Assembly: GCA_001028815.1 (NCBI GenBank)
Contig: LDJB01000003.1
Span: 110,850-174,849, forward strand
Origin: Peptococcaceae bacterium 1109
Lineage (GTDB): Bacteria > Bacillota > Limnochordia > Darwinibacteriales > Darwinibacteriaceae
Reading direction: 5' to 3'
DNA length: 64,000 nt
Shown in pieces: positions 33,110 through 48,160 of the stretch (its first letter is position 1; the number at the start of each line of letters is the position of its first letter). Below the pieces are notes generated by a model. The model was not told the DNA's origin. It saw only the letters and a list, made by a program, of their open reading frames with translations, and did not search any database. The translations under genes were made by a program, and so were the position numbers.

Positions 33110-33937
33110 TTAGCCTTTAATCCCCCCTATACTCAGACCTTGTTCAAAGTGTTTTTGAGCAAAGAAATACAGGATCAGGATGGGCAGCATGGAGATAAGC
33201 CCTCCAGCCATCAGCAAGTTGTACTGGTTGCCATACTGGGTGTTGAGCAAGCTTAAGCCCACTGGCAAGGTCATCTTGGCACGGTCGGTGAGGACAATTA
33301 GGGGCCAGAGATAGTCATTCCAAGCACCCATAAAGGTGATTACGCTTAAAGCTGATAAGACCGGTTTGCTTAAAGGAACAATGATCCGGACATAAATTGC
33401 GGCGTAACCGGCTCCGTCAATCAAAGCTGCTTCTGATAAAGCATCGGGGATGCCCCGCATGTTCTGGCGGAGGAGGAAGACAGCAAAGGCGTTGAAGACA
33501 GAAGGGGCTAAAATCCCCAGGAAGGAGTTGAGCAGGCCGAGGTAGCGCAGGACTAGGAAGTTGGGGATCATGGTTACCTGGCCCGGGATCATCATGGTCA
33601 TAAGAAACAATGTGAAGAGCGTATCTCGCCCCCTAAAGGGGATCTTGGCAAAGACATACGCGGCCATGGACGAGGACAGAACTACAATGGCTGTGGTGGC
33701 ACTAGCCACAAACAAGCTGTTAAAGATGGCCCTCCCAAAGGGAAACAGGGAGAACAACCGCTCATACGCATCGAAACTCACAGGGCTTGGAATCCACTGC
33801 ACCGGCAGGACCAACAATGCCCCACGGGCCTTAAGGGATGTGGATACCATCCAGAAGAACGGCATAAGGTTGAAGAACGCAATTATGCTGGCAAAGAGGT
33901 AAAACCCCAACCGCCGGATTTGCTCTCTACGACTCAT
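33110..33937 (-). CDS. carbohydrate ABC transporter permease (MalG/UgpE-like)
   Basis: 275 aa, six TM segments with the EAAxIDGA signature (EAALIDGAGY). Confidence 0.85.
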   Translation of the reverse strand: MSRREQIRRLGFYLFASIIAFFNLMPFFWMVSTSLKARGALLVLPVQWIPSPVSFDAYERLFSLFPFGRAIFNSLFVASATTAIVVLSSSMAAYVFAKIPFRGRDTLFTLFLMTMMIPGQVTMIPNFLVLRYLGLLNSFLGILAPSVFNAFAVFLLRQNMRGIPDALSEAALIDGAGYAAIYVRIIVPLSKPVLSALSVITFMGAWNDYLWPLIVLTDRAKMTLPVGLSLLNTQYGNQYNLLMAGGLISMLPILILYFFAQKHFEQGLSIGGIKG

Positions 33938-34796
33938 AGTGGACCCACCTTTTCTGGAGCTGGAGCTGGATCAACGTTGCCGCGAAGATAAACACGAACA
34001 GAATCCAGGAGTAGCTTGCAGCATAGCCCATCTTGTAATACCGGAATGCGTAGTTGTAAATCCGCTCCACAAACACCTGGGTGGCGCCGCCTGGGCCCCC
34101 TTCGGTCATTACCATAACTTGGGGAAAGAGCTGGAACGAGTTGATTACCGAAATTATGGTCACGAAGAACAGGGTGGGCGTGACCAAGGGGACAGTAATC
34201 CTGGTAAGCTTCTTAAACCAGTTGGCCCCGTCAATTTCCGCAGCCTCATAGTAGCTGGTGTCAATCCCCTGCAGCCCGGCGAGGATAATCAGGGCAAAGT
34301 AGCCCACGTCCTTCCACACACTTGCCAGAACAATCCCCGGCATGGCCCAGCTCTTGCTGTGCAGCCAGCTCGGGCCTGTGATTCCGGCCATGCCCAAGAT
34401 GGCATTGATCGCCCCGTACCTCGGATTGAGCAGCCACTTCCACAGAAGGGCCGCGGCAACCCACGACGTTAAGACAGGGACATAGTAGATAGTGCGGTAA
34501 AGGCCCACCCCTGGGTACTTGTTGTTAAGCAGCACCGCAACCAAGAGCGATGCCCCGAGGATCAAGGGGATATACAAGGCTATAAAGTACAAAGTGTTGC
34601 CCAACACCCGGGGGAACTCTTCGTTCTGGATAATATCCCTGAAGTTTTTCAGCCAGTGGAACTTGGGCGCGCCGCCGATCACATCCCACTCTGTCAAGCT
34701 GAGGTATAGTGATGTGCCAATGGGAATGATAGAGAACAGCAGCAGCCCCACCAAGCTGGGGAGGAGAAAGAAGAAGATGGTTAAGCGCCGGTTCAT
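33927..34796 (-). CDS. carbohydrate ABC transporter permease (MalF/UgpA-like); in this assembly read through from the upstream ROK regulator
   Basis: Starts MNRRLTIFFFLLPSLVGLLLF at ATG 34796 and contains EAAEIDGANWF. No stop codon separates it from the regulator frame; a C6 run at 34804-34809 sits at the junction. Confidence 0.75.
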   Translation of the reverse strand: MNRRLTIFFFLLPSLVGLLLFSIIPIGTSLYLSLTEWDVIGGAPKFHWLKNFRDIIQNEEFPRVLGNTLYFIALYIPLILGASLLVAVLLNNKYPGVGLYRTIYYVPVLTSWVAAALLWKWLLNPRYGAINAILGMAGITGPSWLHSKSWAMPGIVLASVWKDVGYFALIILAGLQGIDTSYYEAAEIDGANWFKKLTRITVPLVTPTLFFVTIISVINSFQLFPQVMVMTEGGPGGATQVFVERIYNYAFRYYKMGYAASYSWILFVFIFAATLIQLQLQKRWVHYES

Positions 34797-36026
34797 GCCT
34801 AATCCCCCCGGTTTAAAAATTGGTGCCCGGTAGATCTGGTTTACAACCAAGGCACAGGTTCCAATCAGCCACACATCCTCCCCGGTGCTGCACACCTTTA
34901 GCTGGACAGGCTGCTGTTTCTTGGCGAAAAAGTTAGTGGCTAGTTCCAGTTCTATGCCTCGCAAAAGGTGCTTGCCTCCGCGAATCCCCTCACCCCCCAA
35001 AATGATGGCTGCAGGGTTGAAAAGATTGACCAAGTTCTTCAGGCCAATCCCGAGGTTTTGGCCTTGTTTATAGATTATGCTCTGCGCGCAGCGGTCCCCC
35101 TGCTCCGCAGCTTCATACACATCATTGATGGTCAGGGAATCAGAATCCCCCAGGATAGTCGGGACTCCTAAGGCGATGTGGCGCTTTACTTCGCTTAAAG
35201 CAAAGTGGTCGGACGCGTACATTTCCAAGCATCCCCGCTGCCCGCAGTAACAAGGGGCTCCCTCATGCTGGATCACAAGGTGCCCAAACTCACCTGCCCC
35301 GCCGTGTTCCCCCCGGAAAACCTGGCCATCGATGACGATACCCAGGCCAACGCCTACCCCCACCGTCACCCCAAGGAAACTGCTGTGGTGGGGCACCATC
35401 CCTGTCCAAACTTGCGCGAGGGCAAAGGTGTTGGCATCGTTCTCCACGATTACAGGCACATCAAAGTGGCGGCTAACTGGGGTGAAGTCAAACTCATCCC
35501 AGGCTAAGATGGGACTGTATAAAACCTTGCCATGGGCCTGGTCCACCAAGCCTGAAACGGCGATGCCGATACCTACCAGCGGCGCACTGTTTACATCGCC
35601 TTCCAAAAGGCCGCTGATGTTATCTATAAGAAGCTGATTGAGGGCGGCACTATCTGCCTCAGGGGGAAGCTCTGCTGCAGCCTTCTGCTGAATCTTGCCT
35701 AAGAGGTTCATCCGGCTGAACAAAATGCGGGTTGGTTCGATTTTGATACCCACCACTGCGGCAACAGATCCGTTAAACTCCAGCATGGTTGGTTTGCGCC
35801 CACCACTAGACTCCCCTGCCCCCGTCTCCACAACCAGGCCATCATCCATAAGCTCATCGATGATATACGTGATAGTAGACAGCCCCAGCTCCGTATAGCG
35901 GGCAAGGTCCGCCCGGGACATGGGCCCGTGCAACCTCAAATGGTTGATCACTAAGATGCGGTTGTGCTCCTTAATTCGCTTCCGGTTGCCACCGCGCAGC
36001 TGCCTCACAATGCACCATCCGTCCAT
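34797..36026 (-). CDS. ROK-family transcriptional regulator (HTH + sugar-kinase-like domain), fused in frame to the downstream permease in this assembly
   Basis: HTH MSRADLARYTELGLSTITYIIDELMDDG and ROK zinc motif CYCGQRGCLEMY. With one C fewer in the C6 run the frame ends ...APIFKPGD-TAG and the permease ATG follows 2 nt later. Confidence 0.75.
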
Positions 36027-39690: not shown

Positions 39691-39760
39691 AAGCTTTCCC
39701 TCCCTTTAATCACTGCCTTACCTACCCAATATTCCATAAACACCCAGGCTTTCCTGCCCA

Positions 39761-39787
39761 AAAAGAAAAGCCCCCCTCCCCGGGGGT
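39761..39787 (-). terminator. GC-rich hairpin plus U-run after the outer-membrane protein gene
   Basis: Plus strand reads AAAAAGAAAAG-CCCCCC-tcccc-GGGGG; on the minus-strand RNA a C/G stem is followed by CUUUUCUUUUU. Confidence 0.45.
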
Positions 39788-39818
39788 ACCCGGTGGAGGA
39801 GAGCTCTCCCTGTCAGTG

Positions 39819-41060
39819 TTAGAAGTGGAGCCCCAAGGTAAGTGCCAGGCCTAAGCCTTTTCCTTCCTTGAGAACTAGCGAATGGAGGTTCTTTGCAGCA
39901 AGCTGCAGTTCGAATTGGTCAAAGTGCACTCCTACACCTGCATCCAGCATCAGCTGGGTTTTCTGCGAATAGCTGGCACCCACAGTGATGGGGATAAAAG
40001 GCAAAGGCCTGTACTCTACTTCCCCGCCAAACAGGGTGTCAGAAGTACCCGACTCATACCTGGTGTGGCGTACGCTCCCCCGCAGGGTAACCTGCTTGTC
40101 AAAGGCATACTCCAGCCCGAAGCGCACCCGCACAGGCAGCTTCCAGGTGATATCCTCCGCAGATCCTTCCTCTTCACCCAGCTCTTCCCCGTCGGCGAAC
40201 TCGAACTCAAACTCATTGGTCTCTGAGTTATAGCCCACCCGAGCGAGGTCCCATTCACCTTCTTTGCTCCAACGCCGCTCTTTCACATCGGTCCACACGA
40301 CTTGCCCGATGTTTTCCACACTCACATCTACCCCTAGGCGTGGGGTGATCTGCGCTGCTATGCCTGCATCAAAGGCCCAACCCTGCCCCTTCTGGGAGTG
40401 CAGGACGGATACGTCTAGATCCCGGCTTACTACCCGGGTGCCGCCATCGTCTTCGAAATAGGCGATGGTGCCGTTGAAGTCGGTTTCCCCGTAGGCGAGG
40501 CCGTAGAGGTACCGGCCGGAGATGCCCACTACTACGTCTTCAACGGGGAGATCCACGAACTGTGCTAAGGAGAAGGCTGCGGAGAGGCCGCCCTGAGCGT
40601 AGGCTCCCCCCTGCCCCTGGACTCCCGCGAGATCGATCTCAGCGTCCCCCGCTTCCAGCTCTTCCAAGGTTACGCCCTTGAAGGCCAGCTCAGCCAGTTC
40701 GCGTGGGATACGGGCTTCCGCTTCTCCCTGAGCGCCACCGTAAATGCGGAAGTTGTTGTACTGCACGTAGACGCCAGGATCGGTATAGACGTTTACCATC
40801 AACCCGTCCTCCGCGATGGACTGGGCTACTGCCAGACGTTGTTCCTCGGTCCAATGTTTGTTAAGCAAGCCCAGGAGTCGGTACCCAAAGGAGTTAGACG
40901 CCGTTTCGCCATAGAGGGAGATCCCTACAGCAAATCCACCGTCAGTGTCCACAGCCGCCGGGTTGTGGGCGAGAGCTGTACCGCCCAAGCCTGCCACAAC
41001 TAGAGCAATCAGAAGGACTAGGAATACTTGCCTTGATTTCACGGCCCTACCCCCATTCAT
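39819..41060 (-). CDS. outer-membrane beta-barrel protein (porin/FadL-like), signal peptide, C-terminal Phe
   Basis: Start ATG 41060 (MNGGRAVKSRQVFLVLLIALVVAGLGGTALA) forms an ATGA overlap with the upstream lipoprotein stop. Alternating hydrophobic strands (VRVRFGLEYAF, LMLDAGVGVHF) and the terminal LGLALTLGLHF ending in Phe are a classical OMP signature. Confidence 0.6.
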   Translation of the reverse strand: MNGGRAVKSRQVFLVLLIALVVAGLGGTALAHNPAAVDTDGGFAVGISLYGETASNSFGYRLLGLLNKHWTEEQRLAVAQSIAEDGLMVNVYTDPGVYVQYNNFRIYGGAQGEAEARIPRELAELAFKGVTLEELEAGDAEIDLAGVQGQGGAYAQGGLSAAFSLAQFVDLPVEDVVVGISGRYLYGLAYGETDFNGTIAYFEDDGGTRVVSRDLDVSVLHSQKGQGWAFDAGIAAQITPRLGVDVSVENIGQVVWTDVKERRWSKEGEWDLARVGYNSETNEFEFEFADGEELGEEEGSAEDITWKLPVRVRFGLEYAFDKQVTLRGSVRHTRYESGTSDTLFGGEVEYRPLPFIPITVGASYSQKTQLMLDAGVGVHFDQFELQLAAKNLHSLVLKEGKGLGLALTLGLHF

Positions 41061-43345
41061 TGATTTACCTTGATGAGCATGTCGGCCCAAATTCTGTACT
41101 GAAACTTATCCGCAGGTGCGATGGAAATGGGCATCTCACCAGTGCGCCCTTCTTTCGCCAGGGCGACACGCACCCGCATCTTGCCGCCTTGCTTGAGGAA
41201 GTCCTGCACATCTTCATCAACATCCAGTTCAAAGAGGGCGGTTTTCGCCTCAACGGCCCGGCCCGCATCGTTGGTCGCCGCGGCAGGAATGAGGCCTAGC
41301 TCGATGGTATAGGCATCGTCCCAGTTATCCTCATCGGGATCTGTGGACAGATCTAGCCATGCTTCAACGCCCAGCGGGATGCCGTTTGTAACCTCAGCAA
41401 ACAGGGCCGGCTTAGCGATAAACTCCAAACCCTTCTCTAGATCTGCCTGCTGGGCCACTTCCTGCTTGCCCAGGACCAAATCCTCGAACTCCTCATCGTA
41501 GTCGATGGTGAATGTGCTGCTGATTTCCACCTCCACAGTCACCTCAATGACTTCATCCAAATCGATGGCAATGGGCTCCTCAGGATCGCTCGCTACCTCA
41601 ATGCTTCCAGCCAGGGCGAGCTGCTGCGGTTCGGAGCCCAGGATGGCTAACCAATCCTCTGCCTCAGCGGTGTAAGTAGTGGTAATGCCATCGGGATCCG
41701 TTTCAGGATTGCTTAAGGTTACTGTGTATTCCTGGCTATCTGCCCCGATTACGGTCAGCTCCAGGCTGCTGAGATCAAGGGGAATCCCTGAGGGGTTCTT
41801 CAGGATGACCTGCATTTTCAGGCCGATGCCTGACAGCCAATCAAACAGCCCACTGATATCCCCCAGGCCTAGATCAAATTCCACAGGCTCGATCTCTAAG
41901 TCTTCCACGTCGATAGACTGAGGATCGATAAGCACTGTCGCCTCTGAAAGAACGATGCCCTCAAAGGACACGGTGGCAGTTACTGTGTCTCCGTCGAACT
42001 CGAGGGTGTCGCCCTCAACGTCAACCGTAACGGAGATCTCATCCTCAGCAGAGAGAACAACGCCTGCAAGATCAAAGACGTTATCATCGATTACGGTCAA
42101 GGCTTCCGAACCGCTGCTGCCCACAATCTCCACGTCAGTAACTTGCAGCGCTCCTTGGGTCAAGCCTTCGAAGGTGAAACGCAGTTCGCCTTCCTCAATT
42201 GTCAGGCTGAGGAAGCCGTTGTCTTCTGCCAGCTCATCCATGGCTTGAGTGATGGTTATGGAGTCAAAAGCACCTTGGCTGGTCACTGCCTTCACAACAT
42301 AATCAACCAAGGTCACATCCACCTGGCGTTCGTTCTCGGGCAGCGTGGATATAAGGCCTTGTTCAGGTTCGATTTCCCCTTGGATGGTGATGGTCATGCC
42401 ATTTTCCAGGGTAATTCCTGCCAAGCCGTCAACTCCTAAAATGTCATCGGCGCCCACCAGAACGCCCGTCAAGGAGACTTCTCCCTGAGCAGTCAGGTAG
42501 GGTTCTACCTCCAATGTTCCTGCATCGAAGGTTACGGAGTCAAAGGCCAGGCCGCTTAGGGAGACGTCGAACTCAAAGCCGATGGGCTCTTCAGTTTCCA
42601 ACCCTTCCACATGGGTGGCGACCAAGTCTCGAAGCTTCACCGTTATAATCAGGCTGCCCGCAGGTGGGTCCTCCCCGCCAATTATACTCAGCGTTAGAGG
42701 GCCTTCAATGGGGCCTGAGAGCGAAACAGCTTTCTCATCCGGCTGCTCTGGCAGGAGCGTTAGCAACGCCCAAGCTGCATCTGAGATGCCATCAACGGCC
42801 ATGGACTCTAGGGACAGAGATTCGGTGCCAACATACTCTAGCTCGATGACCAGGTTCCCCTCGGTGAGTTCTATTCTTTCAAAGGGAAGAACTATGTCCT
42901 CAGATACCTCCCATGGGGCAATTGCGGGAATCTCTATCTCTTCATCGTACAGCGTCATGTCATCCAGTTCTACAGCGATTTCCGGCAGGTCCAAGGTAAT
43001 GGAGCCCACATCATCCACAAACTCATCTTGGCCCACTTCTACTTCCACTTCAAATTCGGTTGGGAGAAGTTCTCCTGCTTCTGCCACTTCTCTTACTTCT
43101 ACTTGGACAGAATCGCTGAACTGCATTACCAGAGGTTCATCTTCATCGTAATCTTCTGGCAGGTAATCGCTGAGATACTCTTCGGCCAGTTCACCAACGG
43201 TAACCTCCCCGGCGATCAGGGGTACTTGCACGGGGACATCCCAGGATGGCCCGATGCGGCCGGTAACAGGATTCTTCAAGCAACCGGTGAGTGCCACTGT
43301 GAGGATTAGCAACGCTGTTAGCAAGATTTTCGTGTTTCGCACCAT
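41057..43345 (-). CDS. large highly acidic lipoprotein (762 aa, lipobox LTGC) of unknown function
   Basis: MVRNTKILLTALLILTVALTGC is a signal peptide with lipobox. The sequence is dominated by D/E-rich low-complexity stretches (EDYDEDEPL, TEFEVEVEVGQDEF, DYDEEFEDL). Translationally coupled to the OMP gene. Confidence 0.6.
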   Translation of the reverse strand: MVRNTKILLTALLILTVALTGCLKNPVTGRIGPSWDVPVQVPLIAGEVTVGELAEEYLSDYLPEDYDEDEPLVMQFSDSVQVEVREVAEAGELLPTEFEVEVEVGQDEFVDDVGSITLDLPEIAVELDDMTLYDEEIEIPAIAPWEVSEDIVLPFERIELTEGNLVIELEYVGTESLSLESMAVDGISDAAWALLTLLPEQPDEKAVSLSGPIEGPLTLSIIGGEDPPAGSLIITVKLRDLVATHVEGLETEEPIGFEFDVSLSGLAFDSVTFDAGTLEVEPYLTAQGEVSLTGVLVGADDILGVDGLAGITLENGMTITIQGEIEPEQGLISTLPENERQVDVTLVDYVVKAVTSQGAFDSITITQAMDELAEDNGFLSLTIEEGELRFTFEGLTQGALQVTDVEIVGSSGSEALTVIDDNVFDLAGVVLSAEDEISVTVDVEGDTLEFDGDTVTATVSFEGIVLSEATVLIDPQSIDVEDLEIEPVEFDLGLGDISGLFDWLSGIGLKMQVILKNPSGIPLDLSSLELTVIGADSQEYTVTLSNPETDPDGITTTYTAEAEDWLAILGSEPQQLALAGSIEVASDPEEPIAIDLDEVIEVTVEVEISSTFTIDYDEEFEDLVLGKQEVAQQADLEKGLEFIAKPALFAEVTNGIPLGVEAWLDLSTDPDEDNWDDAYTIELGLIPAAATNDAGRAVEAKTALFELDVDEDVQDFLKQGGKMRVRVALAKEGRTGEMPISIAPADKFQYRIWADMLIKVNQ

Positions 43346-43467: not shown

Positions 43468-44289
43468 TTAGACACCTGGATAGGCTTGAAATCCCCCATC
43501 CACGACTACTACAGTACCTGTTACAAAGCGGCTGGCATCTGAAGCAAGCCAAATCAAGGCCCCAACCAGCTCTTCTGCTTCTCCAAAGCGGCCCATGGGG
43601 GTGTGATCCACAATCAGCTGGCCCCGTTCGGTATACTCGCCATTTGGCTTGATCACCAGATCCCGGTTTTGATCCGCGATGAAGAAGCCTGGGGCGATGG
43701 CGTTTACACGGATCCCAGGGGAGAACTCTTGAGCCATATAGACGGCCATCCACTGGGTGAAGTTATTGATAGCGGCCTTCGCCGCAGCATAGGGCATCAC
43801 CCGGGTCATAGGCCTAAATGAAGCCGCGGAAGAAATGTTCACAACAGCACCTGAACCCTGCTTGGCCATCTCAGCCCCAAAAATGCGGGTTGGGATCACA
43901 GTGCCTAAGAGGTTCAGATCAAGAATATCCTTCAAAGCCTGCAAATCCAGATCGAAAAACGTTTGATCCTTCGTGGTGATGGCTTCCGCCTTGTTGCCCC
44001 CCGCGCCGTTTACGAGGATGTCTACGCGCCCGAAGGCTGCCATCACCTGGTCCCTGGCTGCTTTAATGCCTTCTTCGTCAAGGACGTTGGCGGTGACGCC
44101 GATCGCTTCGCCCCCCTCCCCCTTAATCCGGTCTACCATCTGGCCGACTTTGGCCTGGGTCCGGCCTAGGATGGCCACCTTGCAACCAGCCGCTGCCAGG
44201 GCACGAGCCATGGTCCCGCACAGGACTCCGCTCCCACCGGTGATCACGGCAGTACGGCCCGCAACGCTAAACAGTTCGTACACGTTCAT
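43468..44289 (-). CDS. SDR-family oxidoreductase
   Basis: TAVITGGSGVLCG Rossmann motif and a YxxxK-type active-site layout. True ATG at 44289 (273 aa). Confidence 0.8.
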   Translation of the reverse strand: MNVYELFSVAGRTAVITGGSGVLCGTMARALAAAGCKVAILGRTQAKVGQMVDRIKGEGGEAIGVTANVLDEEGIKAARDQVMAAFGRVDILVNGAGGNKAEAITTKDQTFFDLDLQALKDILDLNLLGTVIPTRIFGAEMAKQGSGAVVNISSAASFRPMTRVMPYAAAKAAINNFTQWMAVYMAQEFSPGIRVNAIAPGFFIADQNRDLVIKPNGEYTERGQLIVDHTPMGRFGEAEELVGALIWLASDASRFVTGTVVVVDGGFQAYPGV

Positions 44290-44479
44290 GCTGAACACCC
44301 TCTCCCGCGGCCTCCCCGTTCTGGGGAGGACGCCGCTGTTTTCGGACACACTAACCTCACAGCAGGAGAAACTGCTGGGGATGCAAAAGCATGGTACGTA
44401 TTACGTTCTGCGCCTCTATTCCATTTCCTTCCCATTAGTTAGACTTCGCGAAAAAAACCCAAAAGGAAGTGATTACTTC

Positions 44480-45037
44480 ATGGAACACCGTGCAGTCTTC
44501 CTCGACCGAGATGGCGTCCTAAATCGATCTATCGGCAAGCGCCCCCCAAATACCCCTGAGGAGCTGGAAATGCTGCCAGGGGCCGCCAAGGCAGTAAAAG
44601 AGCTTAACGATGCAGGCTTCAAAGTGTTTGTTGTGACCAATCAAGGGGGAGTTGCCTTAGGGTATATGACCAAAGAAGACCTAGAAGCAATCCACGCCCG
44701 GCTCCAGGAGGAAGTGGCCCGGGAAGGAGGAGTCATTCACGAGATCGCAGCGTGCACTCACCGTCCATGGGCTAAGTGCAATTGCCGGAAACCAAAACCG
44801 GGCATGCTGATTCAGCTCGCCCGGCGACACAAGATCGATTTGGAAAACAGTTTTATGGTTGGCGACAGGGAGATGGATATCCTCGCTGGCCAAGGGGCCG
44901 GTACCACCACTATCCTAGTAGGTGATGGAGAAGAAGAAACGACCGCAGACTACGCAGTGGCAGACCTTGCGGAAGCCGCTAGGCTAATTATTGAGCAGCT
45001 CGGGCCACAGCTTCCACCGCAAGGAGGTAAGAGTTAA
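44480..45037 (+). CDS. gmhB: D-glycero-D-manno-heptose 1,7-bisphosphate phosphatase (HAD-IIIA, GmhB-like)
   Basis: FLDRDGVLN, the [18 protein letters not shown] zinc motif and [13 protein letters not shown] at 44480. The track ORF from 43973 is an over-extension antisense to the SDR gene. 3' end overlaps convergent aroQ by 50 bp. Confidence 0.7.
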
Positions 45038-46276: not shown

Positions 46277-48160
46277 TCATCCTTGCTCAGTGAGCACTGA
46301 AATGATCTCCCTTAGAGTTTGGCTAGCATCGCCCTCAACAAACAAACAGTGAGGCATGTTGTAAAGGGCATTGGGCACACCTGCATAGCCAGGGGATCTG
46401 TCAAGGTTGCAAACCACCACATGCCTGGCATCGCTCACACTTAAGATAGGCATTCCATAGATGGGAGTCCCTTCTGCCGTTTGCGCGGCGGGATTAACCA
46501 CGTCATTGGCCCCCACAACTAATACCACATCCGTACTGCTAAACTCAGGATTGATTTCATCCAGTGTGTAGAGCATGTCGTAAGGTATGTCAACCTCCGC
46601 AAGAAGGACATTCATATGGCCTGGCATTCGCCCTGCCACAGGGTGGATCCCGATTTTAACCTGGATGCCGCGGCCTTGCAGGACATCCACCAGCTCCCTC
46701 ACTTGGTGCTGAGCTGCAGCGAGGGCCATGCCGTAGCCAGGGACGATTATCACTTGCTCTGCTTGGGAAAGGAACTTCCCAGCCTCAGCGGAGGGCCTTC
46801 CGCCCGCCACTTCCTTTTGAGGCTGTCTAAGGAAACCCAAGACCTTCTCCAAAGTCTCTTTGGCATCGCCTAAAAGGAGGCTCACATGGGGCTCTTCGTA
46901 AAGGGAATTAGGAACTCCTGCATAGCCAGGCTGGGTGTCGTAGTTAAGCACCATGACGTGCTTGGCCAGATCCGCCCGGATAATGGGCATCCCATAGATG
47001 GGAGTGCCTGGTTGAGCCATAGCCGCAGGGTTCACCACATCATTTGCCCCTACCACGATGGCAAGATCGGCCCCAGGAAGGAACTCATTGATGGCCTCCA
47101 TATCGTGTAGCTTCTCGTAAGGAACATCCACCTCAGCAAGGAGGACATTCATATGTCCCGGCATGCGCCCTGCCACGGGATGAATGCCCACCTTCACCTC
47201 TTTATGGCCCGCCTCAAGCAGATCGATGAGCTCCTTCACCTGAAGCTGGGCTTGAGCTACGGCCATGCCGTAACCAGGAATAATGGCCACCCGCTCAGCT
47301 TCAGCCAGGGCCTGCTCCCACTGGCAAGCAGAAGCTGCCTGGGTGGGGGCTTCCAGCCCTGATTCCCGAGAAGGGGTACCTGTCACAGTAGTGCGCCCCG
47401 TCAAAATGCTCAAGAGGCTGCGGTTCATTGCCCTGCACATGATCTGCGTTAAGATAAACCCAGAGGCCCCAACAATCCCGCCCACTGCCACCAGAAGCGG
47501 ATTCTTAAGTGGAAAGCCCGCGATCGCTCCCGCGACGCCCGACAGAGAGTTCAACAGAGAGATGGTAATGGGCATGTCTGCTCCGCCCACCCGCATGGTA
47601 AGCAGGACTCCAAAGACCAGTGCGAGGATGAGCTGTACGAACGCTGCGGTGCGCCCTGCAAAGAAAAGTGAAGCCAAGGATAGCACCGTCACCACCGTAA
47701 CCACTGCGGCGTGCCGGGGTAGTTCCTGGGGCCTTTGGCTTACTACGCCATGGAGCTTGGCTGCTGCCAGCGCACTGCCGCCAAACGTTAGGGCTCCTAC
47801 TGCAATTGTAAGCCCCGTGGTAAAATGGGCAAAGGCCCCCACCGCTTCCCCTTGGAGGGCAAGGACCAAGCCCACCAGTGCCGAGGCACCGCCCCCAAGC
47901 CCGTTTAGGGCTGCCACCATCTGGGGCATCTGGATCATCAGAACCTTTACCGCGGCAACCCAGCCCAGGGCTGTCCCTACCCCGAGCCCCGCCCAAAGGA
48001 GGGGATAGGTAAGGATGCCTGCTTCAAGCAAAGCAACAGCGATGGCTGCTAGCATCGCGCCCGCGCCTAAGGCGTTTCCCAGAACTGCAGTCTTGGGGGA
48101 ACTCATTAACTTAATCCCGTAGAGCATCAAGGCAGCGAAGCACAGGAGAAGGTAGTTCAC
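46277..48160 (-). CDS. pntB: NAD(P) transhydrogenase subunit beta with tandemly duplicated dIII (NADP(H)-binding) domain
   Basis: 627 aa instead of ~460: a TM domain (~250 aa) is followed by two ~155-aa copies of the dIII domain (IIPGYGMAVAQAQ...GRMPGHMNVLLAEV...VVGANDVVNPAA... and IVPGYGMALAAAQ...GRMPGHMNVLLAEV...VVGANDVVNPAA...). Copies lie at about 46841-47305 and 46301-46765. Confidence 0.85.
   Translation of the reverse strand: MNYLLLCFAALMLYGIKLMSSPKTAVLGNALGAGAMLAAIAVALLEAGILTYPLLWAGLGVGTALGWVAAVKVLMIQMPQMVAALNGLGGGASALVGLVLALQGEAVGAFAHFTTGLTIAVGALTFGGSALAAAKLHGVVSQRPQELPRHAAVVTVVTVLSLASLFFAGRTAAFVQLILALVFGVLLTMRVGGADMPITISLLNSLSGVAGAIAGFPLKNPLLVAVGGIVGASGFILTQIMCRAMNRSLLSILTGRTTVTGTPSRESGLEAPTQAASACQWEQALAEAERVAIIPGYGMAVAQAQLQVKELIDLLEAGHKEVKVGIHPVAGRMPGHMNVLLAEVDVPYEKLHDMEAINEFLPGADLAIVVGANDVVNPAAMAQPGTPIYGMPIIRADLAKHVMVLNYDTQPGYAGVPNSLYEEPHVSLLLGDAKETLEKVLGFLRQPQKEVAGGRPSAEAGKFLSQAEQVIIVPGYGMALAAAQHQVRELVDVLQGRGIQVKIGIHPVAGRMPGHMNVLLAEVDIPYDMLYTLDEINPEFSSTDVVLVVGANDVVNPAAQTAEGTPIYGMPILSVSDARHVVVCNLDRSPGYAGVPNALYNMPHCLFVEGDASQTLREIISVLTEQG

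Follow-up and report, generated by a model that had tools for sequence, protein, structure and literature searches.

Within the 64,000-nucleotide stretch of the genome of Peptococcaceae bacterium 1109 analysed here (contig LDJB01000003.1; referred to below as the window), two adjacent minus-strand genes, encoding a hyper-acidic lipoprotein of 762 residues and a smaller protein of the outer-membrane beta-barrel family DUF5723, appear to make up a self-contained outer-membrane module in a diderm Firmicute; they are tightly linked, closed by a terminator, and adjacent to one another in very divergent relatives. The interpretation that we favour, at a probability of roughly 40%, is that the two products would assemble into a 1:1 outer-membrane complex, in which the barrel may serve as a dedicated anchor and possibly as a translocon, with the lipoprotein as its passenger and the acidic modules of the latter directed outward. 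An earlier note on this DNA, made from the sequence of the window by itself, had proposed an undescribed envelope or surface system in a diderm host, and this reading proves largely right; the likeness that it drew to lipoprotein-export or lipoprotein-plugged-barrel systems is a plausible suggestion.

Central to this view is the co-conservation of the two genes. Of the 16 distinct loci in which DNA downstream of the lipoprotein gene is available, 15 have a DUF5723-type barrel gene, as recognised by local hidden Markov models (HMMs), immediately after it (window/L002/L019, L001/L021, L003-5, L006, L007, L008, L009, L011, L012, L013, L016, L017, L018, L023 and L025), the count being drawn from gene contexts, two collection scans, and local HMMs of both families. 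The scan of a genome collection with barrel patterns returned 3 loci, and that of metagenomes with a narrower alignment returned 7. Order and orientation of the pair are the same throughout the 15 loci, at lipoprotein identities of ~19-100%, and the pairing is kept both for P0026, whose lipoprotein is ~19% identical to that of the window and whose contig has a GC content of 40%, and for the weakest match to the lipoprotein family, P0049 (E = 8e-4). Co-conservation in relatives, on which the earlier note had made its proposal depend, is thus borne out by these loci.

Equally informative are the surroundings of the pair. In close relatives they correspond to those in the window, with aroE, aroQ, a HAD phosphatase and a short-chain dehydrogenase/reductase (SDR) upstream, and aldose epimerase, GH94, ROK and ABC genes downstream. 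The neighbours are wholly different in L001, L012, L013, L016 and L018, and the two genes therefore constitute a conserved unit in their own right; no third gene is conserved beside the pair across the loci compared.

At the level of the locus itself, both open reading frames lie on the minus strand where the earlier note had placed them. The lipoprotein gene spans positions 43345-41057, with a TGA stop at 41059-41057 and an ATG start at 43345, or possibly a GTG at 43342, and the barrel gene spans 39819-41060, with its stop at 39821-39819. Counted from the ATG at 41060-41058, the barrel has 413 aa, and its start codon overlaps the lipoprotein stop in an ATGA motif (41057-41060; junction sequence ...CAATGAATGG). 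An alternative in-frame GTG at 41042-41040, with GGGGG 7 nt upstream, yields 407 aa, and NCBI records KLU39301 and MGI6639955 begin the protein there. This start leaves a 14-nt gap without overlap and is equally plausible. The overlap reported previously is accordingly real as far as the ATG and the TGA are concerned, and belongs to only one of the two possible starts, while the barrel length of 423 aa given at the time has to be replaced by 413 or 407 aa, since it stems from an upstream TTG at 41090 and is inconsistent with the ATGA start. Whichever start is used, the two genes are tightly linked, with a gap of at most 14 nt, and in relatives the spacing at the junction varies between a 4-nt overlap and a 60-nt gap. 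Downstream, the two-gene unit is closed by a terminator-like hairpin followed by a U-run (39758-39816, minus strand; site 39786-39771), with a dG of -41.2 kcal/mol and z = -5.3 against shuffles, beyond which the next gene is an aldose 1-epimerase. The description of a discrete pair ending at a terminator therefore stands.

By its sequence, the product of the second gene is a member of a family of outer-membrane beta-barrels, as had been proposed. It scores 68.9 bits with Pfam DUF5723 (PF18990), whose cutoff is 26.8 (E = 8.5e-19), a 90%-identical barrel carries the NCBI label 'DUF5723 family protein', and 11 of 11 diverse barrel homologues match DUF5723 at a loose threshold of E <= 10 (best 1.5e-22). 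The L016 barrel has no Pfam match at E <= 0.1 and aligns to the barrel profile in hhalign at 92% over 324 columns. Other weak matches of the 11 barrels were to outer-membrane-barrel families only, namely OMP_b-brl, TraF_2, Phenol_MetA_deg and Toluene_X. Judged by eye, the barrel begins with a signal peptide of 31 residues (40968-41060, minus strand) that ends in ...GLGGTALA, the mature protein starting with HNPAAV; the N-P-A motif at this mature N-terminus (aa 33-35; 40956-40964, minus strand) includes N33 and P34, which are invariant in the 11 barrels down to 22% identity. At the other end of the protein, a C-terminal strand resembling the beta-signal of the beta-barrel assembly machinery (BAM) carries a terminal Phe (GLGLALTLGLHF; 39822-39854, minus strand), the window barrel ending ...LGLALTLGLHF, and F413, G402 and L395 are invariant in the 11 diverse barrels.

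Structure prediction adds a qualified picture of this protein. The AlphaFold2 model of the barrel, built from 8 sequences, is nearly all beta, at a predicted local distance difference test (pLDDT) score of 55.7 that does not allow closure and strand number to be read. All significant Foldseek matches (E <= 0.001) of this low-confidence model were outer-membrane barrels, led in the PDB by TodX, TbuX, FadL and CymD at a template modelling (TM) score of ~0.43 and followed by other outer-membrane barrels; such a FadL-like ranking of a weak model is best taken as a lead only. Profile searches returned no PDB sequence match to the barrel, and its sequence shows no connection with FadL or with any solved structure. 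In the literature, a search on DUF5723 and PF18990 yielded two passing mentions only, one of a predicted 16-stranded barrel of Brachyspira pilosicoli and one of a protein of Porphyromonas gingivalis outer-membrane vesicles, and neither a function nor a partner protein was described there. As to composition, an acidic insert of the barrel (aa 283-303; EFEFEFADGEELGEEEGSAED) is kept in close relatives, and the mature barrel has a pI of ~4.5, making both partners acidic.

For the lipoprotein, the N-terminus (MVRNTKILLTALLILTVALTGC) was compared with the criterion for bacterial lipoproteins as Lgt/LspA substrates, comprising a positive n-region, a hydrophobic h-region and a lipobox of the form [LVI][ASTVI][GAS]C. 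It presents, as read by eye, the n-region MVRNTK, the h-region ILLTALLILTVA and the lipobox LTGC, so that the signal peptide with its lipobox covers aa 1-22 (MVRNTKILLTALLILTVALTG, then C; 43280-43345, minus strand), and the 762-aa lipoprotein with an LTGC lipobox described before is confirmed. Cys22 is invariant, and Gly21 at position -1 is at least 90% conserved among 22-25 members of the family; the lipobox Cys is, moreover, the single Cys in the whole window lipoprotein.

The composition of the lipoprotein sets it apart within the window. Asp and Glu make up 21.5% of its residues and Lys and Arg 3.7%, for a net charge of about -136, against a mean Asp+Glu content of 11.7% (s.d. 2.7, maximum 15.9) in the other 25 genes of the window, and all clear members of the family are acidic as well (Asp+Glu 14-21%). 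This acidity had previously been ascribed to dense Asp/Glu low-complexity segments, a description that has to be given up: a SEG-like test found 38 low-complexity residues outside the signal peptide, and the longest acidic run has no more than 4 residues. In the AlphaFold2 model (22-sequence alignment; pLDDT 83.9, predicted TM score 0.60), the protein consists of several domains with long strands, built from beta structure throughout, and it is predicted to form a chain of beta-sandwich domains, some of which would be tandem duplicates. The reading as an acidic low-complexity or disordered protein is rejected in view of this confident fold prediction together with the few low-complexity residues.

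Equally relevant is the family status of the lipoprotein. It has no sequence match in Pfam, NCBIfam or the PDB, nor do ten of its more distant relatives; PDB profile searches with the lipoprotein alignments gave nothing meaningful, and Foldseek comparison of the model with the PDB returned non-specific multi-domain beta matches only (TM score ~0.1). On these sequence comparisons, the lipoprotein founds an undescribed family. The earlier statement that neither protein belongs to a recognisable family is thus retained for the lipoprotein and withdrawn for the barrel, which is a clear DUF5723 member already named as such at NCBI. The family is also rare, only 38 relatives at E <= 1e-3 being recovered when 1.84 billion representative proteins were searched with a profile; a word-indexed homologue search recovered 4-8 relatives only, and its rerun with a 22-sequence profile was swamped and gave one extra match.

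Conservation is distributed unevenly along the lipoprotein. The most conserved part of the family is the near-invariant segment that follows the lipid-attachment Cys (aa 23-49, LKNPVTGRIGPSWDVPVQVPLIAGEVT; 43199-43279, minus strand), whose ~27-28 residues (CLKNPVTGRIGPSWDVPVQVPLIAGEVT) share 81% identity within the long forms and 59% with distant forms. It contains Trp35, which like Cys22 is invariant in 25 of 25 sequences, and a long strand at aa 34-49 in the AlphaFold2 prediction. Conservation of this kind is not a feature of ordinary lipoprotein tethers, and the segment therefore probably mediates a contact or serves in sorting. At the opposite end, the C-terminal core (aa 362-762, domains D2-D4; 41060-42262, minus strand) ends in ...YRIWADMLIKVNQ, with a terminal W.E....VN[KQ] pattern common to the lipoprotein family, and the last domain, D4, is 61% identical among long forms.

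Between these two conserved parts lies a variable middle region (aa 74-360; 42266-43126, minus strand) made up of extra beta-sandwich modules, which are the least conserved, at 28-39% identity, and which are missing from short forms. Two size classes are accordingly seen, with long forms of ~750 aa (762 in the window) and short forms of 460-520 aa, the latter matching only profile positions 1-55 and ~360-749 and keeping aa 1-55 and ~360-762 of the window lipoprotein. The hhalign comparison of module Dc (253-360) with D2 (362-482) gave 94.5% and that of Db (155-250) with D2 gave 74%, and to judge from these alignments the middle region arose partly by tandem duplication of a core module. Long and short forms, differing by ~300 residues, occur even among syntenic close relatives, and a domain number that varies by tandem duplication, also between such relatives, suggests a spacer or stalk. 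The lipoprotein is, furthermore, less conserved than its cognate barrel in each comparison (46 vs 70%, 37 vs 64% and 19 vs 28% identity).

An outer-membrane setting is consistent with what is established about the host. Strain 1109 is placed by GTDB in the Limnochordia, family DTU010, genus 1109 (PMC8225771), and several proteins of the window, besides being identical to those recorded for strain 1109, show 90% identity or more to their counterparts in a metagenome-assembled genome named 'Limnochordia bacterium'. The NCBI entry files the genome under Clostridia/Peptococcaceae, a name that would wrongly suggest a monoderm. Limnochordia are one of three diderm Firmicutes lineages, with outer-membrane marker genes in 46 of 46 Limnochordia UBA genomes and an outer membrane visible by transmission electron microscopy (TEM) in cultivated Limnochordia; in Carboxydochorda, TEM reveals an S-layer for which no S-layer gene has been found (PMC11456536). 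The host therefore belongs to a diderm lineage by GTDB placement, published TEM and marker genes, as the earlier note had concluded on other grounds. One of those grounds, a gmhB gene at 44480-45037 (plus strand), is rejected as an outer-membrane marker: its product stays below the GmhB equivalog cutoffs (NF006506, 157 vs 178 bits; TIGR00213, 112.6 vs 149.6 bits), passes only HAD-IIIA and histidinol-phosphatase domain models, and is not encoded in a conserved neighbouring position outside close relatives. It is at best weak evidence for an outer membrane, and the diderm argument stands without it.

How such a pair might operate can be outlined from these features. The lipoprotein and the barrel would be made in matched amounts; the barrel would be inserted into the outer membrane by BAM via its C-terminal Phe signal, and the lipoprotein would be acylated at Cys22. 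The lipoprotein might then dock on the barrel, or be handed by it across the outer membrane, through a conserved 'base' formed by the near-invariant segment after the Cys (C-LKNPVTGRIGPSWDVPVQVPLI) and the conserved C-terminal domain. The result would be outer-membrane localisation in a lineage reported to lack Lol, and the fast-evolving, hyper-acidic beta-sandwich modules, variable in number, would project from the membrane, most likely at the cell surface, where they could act as a polyanionic coat or as a cation- or ligand-binding stalk.

Several points weigh against this scheme. The barrel model is poor (pLDDT 55.7), and lumen width and docking site cannot be judged from it; surface exposure is read from composition and evolutionary rate alone, and the host's lack of Lol rests on literature reports at the level of the lineage. 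In addition, one family member, P0044 (L014:1458-3557 and L015:329-2428; 699 aa), a weak match to the family (E = 8.5e-5), has no adjacent barrel, a radical-SAM gene following it instead. Finally, the lipoprotein orthologue of one lineage carries an in-frame TAG (L001:9661-9663 and L021:5939-5941) in place of the Glu of '...PALFAEV...', which removes the last 107 residues and leaves the barrel gene intact; the 441-kb contig that bears it was assembled independently from two JGI samples. This TAG could reflect a nonsense mutation, a pseudogene or a split gene, and the lipoprotein, being truncated by it, may be dispensable in that lineage.

Among the competing explanations, a role in uptake is the most probable, though we regard it as doubtful. 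Here the barrel would act as a passive, FadL-like channel through which a hydrophobic or otherwise poorly diffusing nutrient enters, and the lipoprotein as a surface lid or antenna that captures the substrate, in functional analogy to SusD/SusC, BtuG/BtuB and TbpB/TbpA; pairs of a barrel and a surface lipoprotein are indeed usual for nutrient capture in Bacteroidota and Neisseria. Several findings fit, including the ranking of the FadL family first (TodX, TbuX, FadL, CymD) for the weak barrel model, the invariant N-P of the NPA-like motif in the barrels, and the weak matches of one barrel to Toluene_X (E = 0.019) and of another to Phenol_MetA_deg. However, the window barrel itself has no significant sequence match to FadL/Toluene_X, and the pair does not include a TonB-type barrel; to our knowledge, lipoprotein-assisted importers use TonB-dependent barrels, and we know of no lipoprotein partner of FadL channels, both of which count against uptake. 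The genes for sugar use around the pair in the window and in close relatives (aldose epimerase, GH94 phosphorylase, ROK regulator, ABC sugar transporter and mannonate oxidoreductase) would likewise agree with nutrient capture, but this context is gone in L001, L012, L013, L016 and L018, in which the pair remains. A net charge of -136 and variable, repeated modules also suit a stalk or coat better than a ligand-binding lid.

Another explanation reverses the topology, in that the lipoprotein would be kept in the outer leaflet of the cytoplasmic membrane, span the periplasm and bind the periplasmic face of the barrel, thereby linking both membranes or feeding the barrel from below. Retention in the inner membrane would be the default fate where Lol is absent, as is reported for Terrabacteria (PMC10628300), a long beta protein of several domains that gains or loses entire modules has the look of a periplasmic ruler, and the strict 1:1 gene linkage is equally compatible with such a tether. 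Nevertheless, it appears unlikely: the most conserved element lies within ~12-27 residues of the lipid anchor and is joined in conservation by the C-terminal domain, which suggests contact close to the anchor and not at a distal tip; a length difference of ~300 residues among close relatives is hard to reconcile with the constant width expected of the periplasm; and fast divergence with extreme acidity is more typical of exposed proteins. Least probable is that the two genes are mere neighbours, with a commonplace lipoprotein, secreted or adhesin-like, and a commonplace porin-like protein co-transcribed by chance. P0044, without its adjacent barrel, and the lineage in which an intact barrel is retained beside a truncated lipoprotein speak for this, yet chance would then have to account for adjacency in 15 of 16 loci, in the same order and orientation, at ~19-100% identity and in unrelated contexts, with start and stop codons that overlap or nearly abut in most of them.

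Comparison with known systems supports a resemblance in function to modules of a barrel and its cognate lipoprotein, offered here by analogy; the defining domains of those families were not detected in the pair. One of these is Slam/type XI secretion (T11SS; cargo TbpB, fHbp and HpuA), in which a dedicated barrel is likewise encoded beside its lipoprotein cargo. The Slam barrel recognises a conserved domain of the cargo lipoprotein, which reaches the surface independently of the general pathway. The present cargo differs in being a chain of beta-sandwich domains and not a handle with a barrel lobe, and the host in being a Firmicute reported to lack Lol and not a Proteobacterium; membership in Slam/T11SS was rejected, with no DUF560 or TPR match at E <= 1 in Pfam or NCBIfam.

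The type IX secretion system (T9SS) offers a parallel in gene order, a large protein followed by a small barrel. In that system, the gene for a large surface protein with a type-B C-terminal domain (CTD) precedes that of a small PorP/SprF-type barrel, which anchors the product, and PorV is a shuttle with a FadL-like fold; the parallel serves here as a lead only. The cargo of the present pair is, however, a lipoprotein and not a CTD protein, and we know of no T9SS in Bacillota. PorV and PorP/SprF membership was rejected, since no such NCBIfam family was found at E <= 1 for the window barrel or at E <= 1e-5 for three distant partners, and there was no Pfam match.

With FadL, TodX and TbuX (Toluene_X), the barrel shares a size of ~400 aa and an invariant N-P(-A) near the N-terminus, and it differs from FadL in that the NPA lies right at the N-terminus of the mature window barrel. 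Membership in FadL/Toluene_X is defined by a Pfam match (PF03349), with a 14-stranded barrel and an N-terminal hatch bearing the NPA; the window barrel had no match at E <= 1, and one of 11 relatives matched at E = 0.019, which leaves a resemblance only. For FadL itself, the titles of PDB entries 2r4l, 2r4n and 2r4o indicate a functionally studied NPA motif.

Adjacent genes also encode the 1:1 outer-membrane complexes of a barrel and a lipoprotein known as SusC/SusD, BtuB/BtuG, TbpA/TbpB and LptD/LptE. Their barrels are TonB-dependent transporters or LptD, which distinguishes them from the present pair. A SusC/SusD or other TonB-dependent pair was rejected, with no Plug, TonB_dep_Rec or SusD matches and a barrel of ~380 mature residues as against 22-stranded receptors; LptD/LptE was rejected for want of any LptD (OstA) or LptE domain match, and OmpM, the outer-membrane tether of diderm Firmicutes, because no SLH match was found. 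Also among the closest known proteins is BDI_1231 of Parabacteroides distasonis (PDB 4h3w), a putative secreted protein of unknown function from structural genomics, and a literature search on 4H3W/BDI_1231 and the NCBI protein accessions returned nothing functional.

The broader interest of the pair lies in the trafficking of lipoproteins in diderm Firmicutes and other Terrabacteria, whose route to, and arrangement at, the outer membrane is an open question because the Lol export pathway is reportedly restricted to Gracilicutes and absent from Terrabacteria (PMC10628300). A cassette that is rare but strictly conserved, and that pairs a lipoprotein with a barrel of its own, is a concrete and testable candidate for such a Lol-less route. 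In its strongest form, which we consider improbable, the DUF5723 barrel would be a dedicated, Lol-independent translocon and anchor that displays its cognate lipoprotein on the surface of diderm Terrabacteria. If so, it would represent a new kind of system for lipoprotein surface display or secretion, and the acidic lipoprotein could be the surface coat of Limnochordia or a component of their S-layer. At the least, the pair probably constitutes a new outer-membrane complex, and the orphan family DUF5723, which also occurs in Spirochaetes and Bacteroidota, gains its first conserved partner. The host, an uncultured bacterium, is, moreover, among the most abundant organisms of agricultural biogas plants (PMC6731289), and its surface proteins therefore matter for the ecology of anaerobic digesters and for interpreting metaproteomes from them; the proteins of the pair are not listed in the supplement of the biogas metaproteome.

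Several further observations concern other genes of the window, in which scans for tRNA genes and Rfam families found none. Directly upstream of the pair, the gene at 43468-44349 (minus strand) encodes an SDR that passes the NCBIfam model 'D-mannonate oxidoreductase' (374.6 vs 281 bits), belongs to sugar-acid metabolism and not to the envelope, and is syntenic in close relatives only. A single 699-aa open reading frame at 33927-36026 (minus strand) joins a ROK regulator (aa 93-395) to an ABC permease domain (aa 478-694); the two are separate genes with a 4-nt overlap in L004 and L011, and the joined form reflects a fusion of the two genes or else a difference due to a frameshift or to assembly. 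Lastly, PntB, the transhydrogenase beta subunit encoded at 46277-48160 (minus strand), has 627 aa as against ~460 aa (456 positions in the Pfam PNTB model) and contains two PNTB-matching stretches. Its NADP(H)-binding C-terminal domain is apparently tandem-duplicated, the part from ...PGYGMA... to.PY... being present twice, and the protein is equally long in relatives, at 627 aa in L002 and 629 aa in L003.

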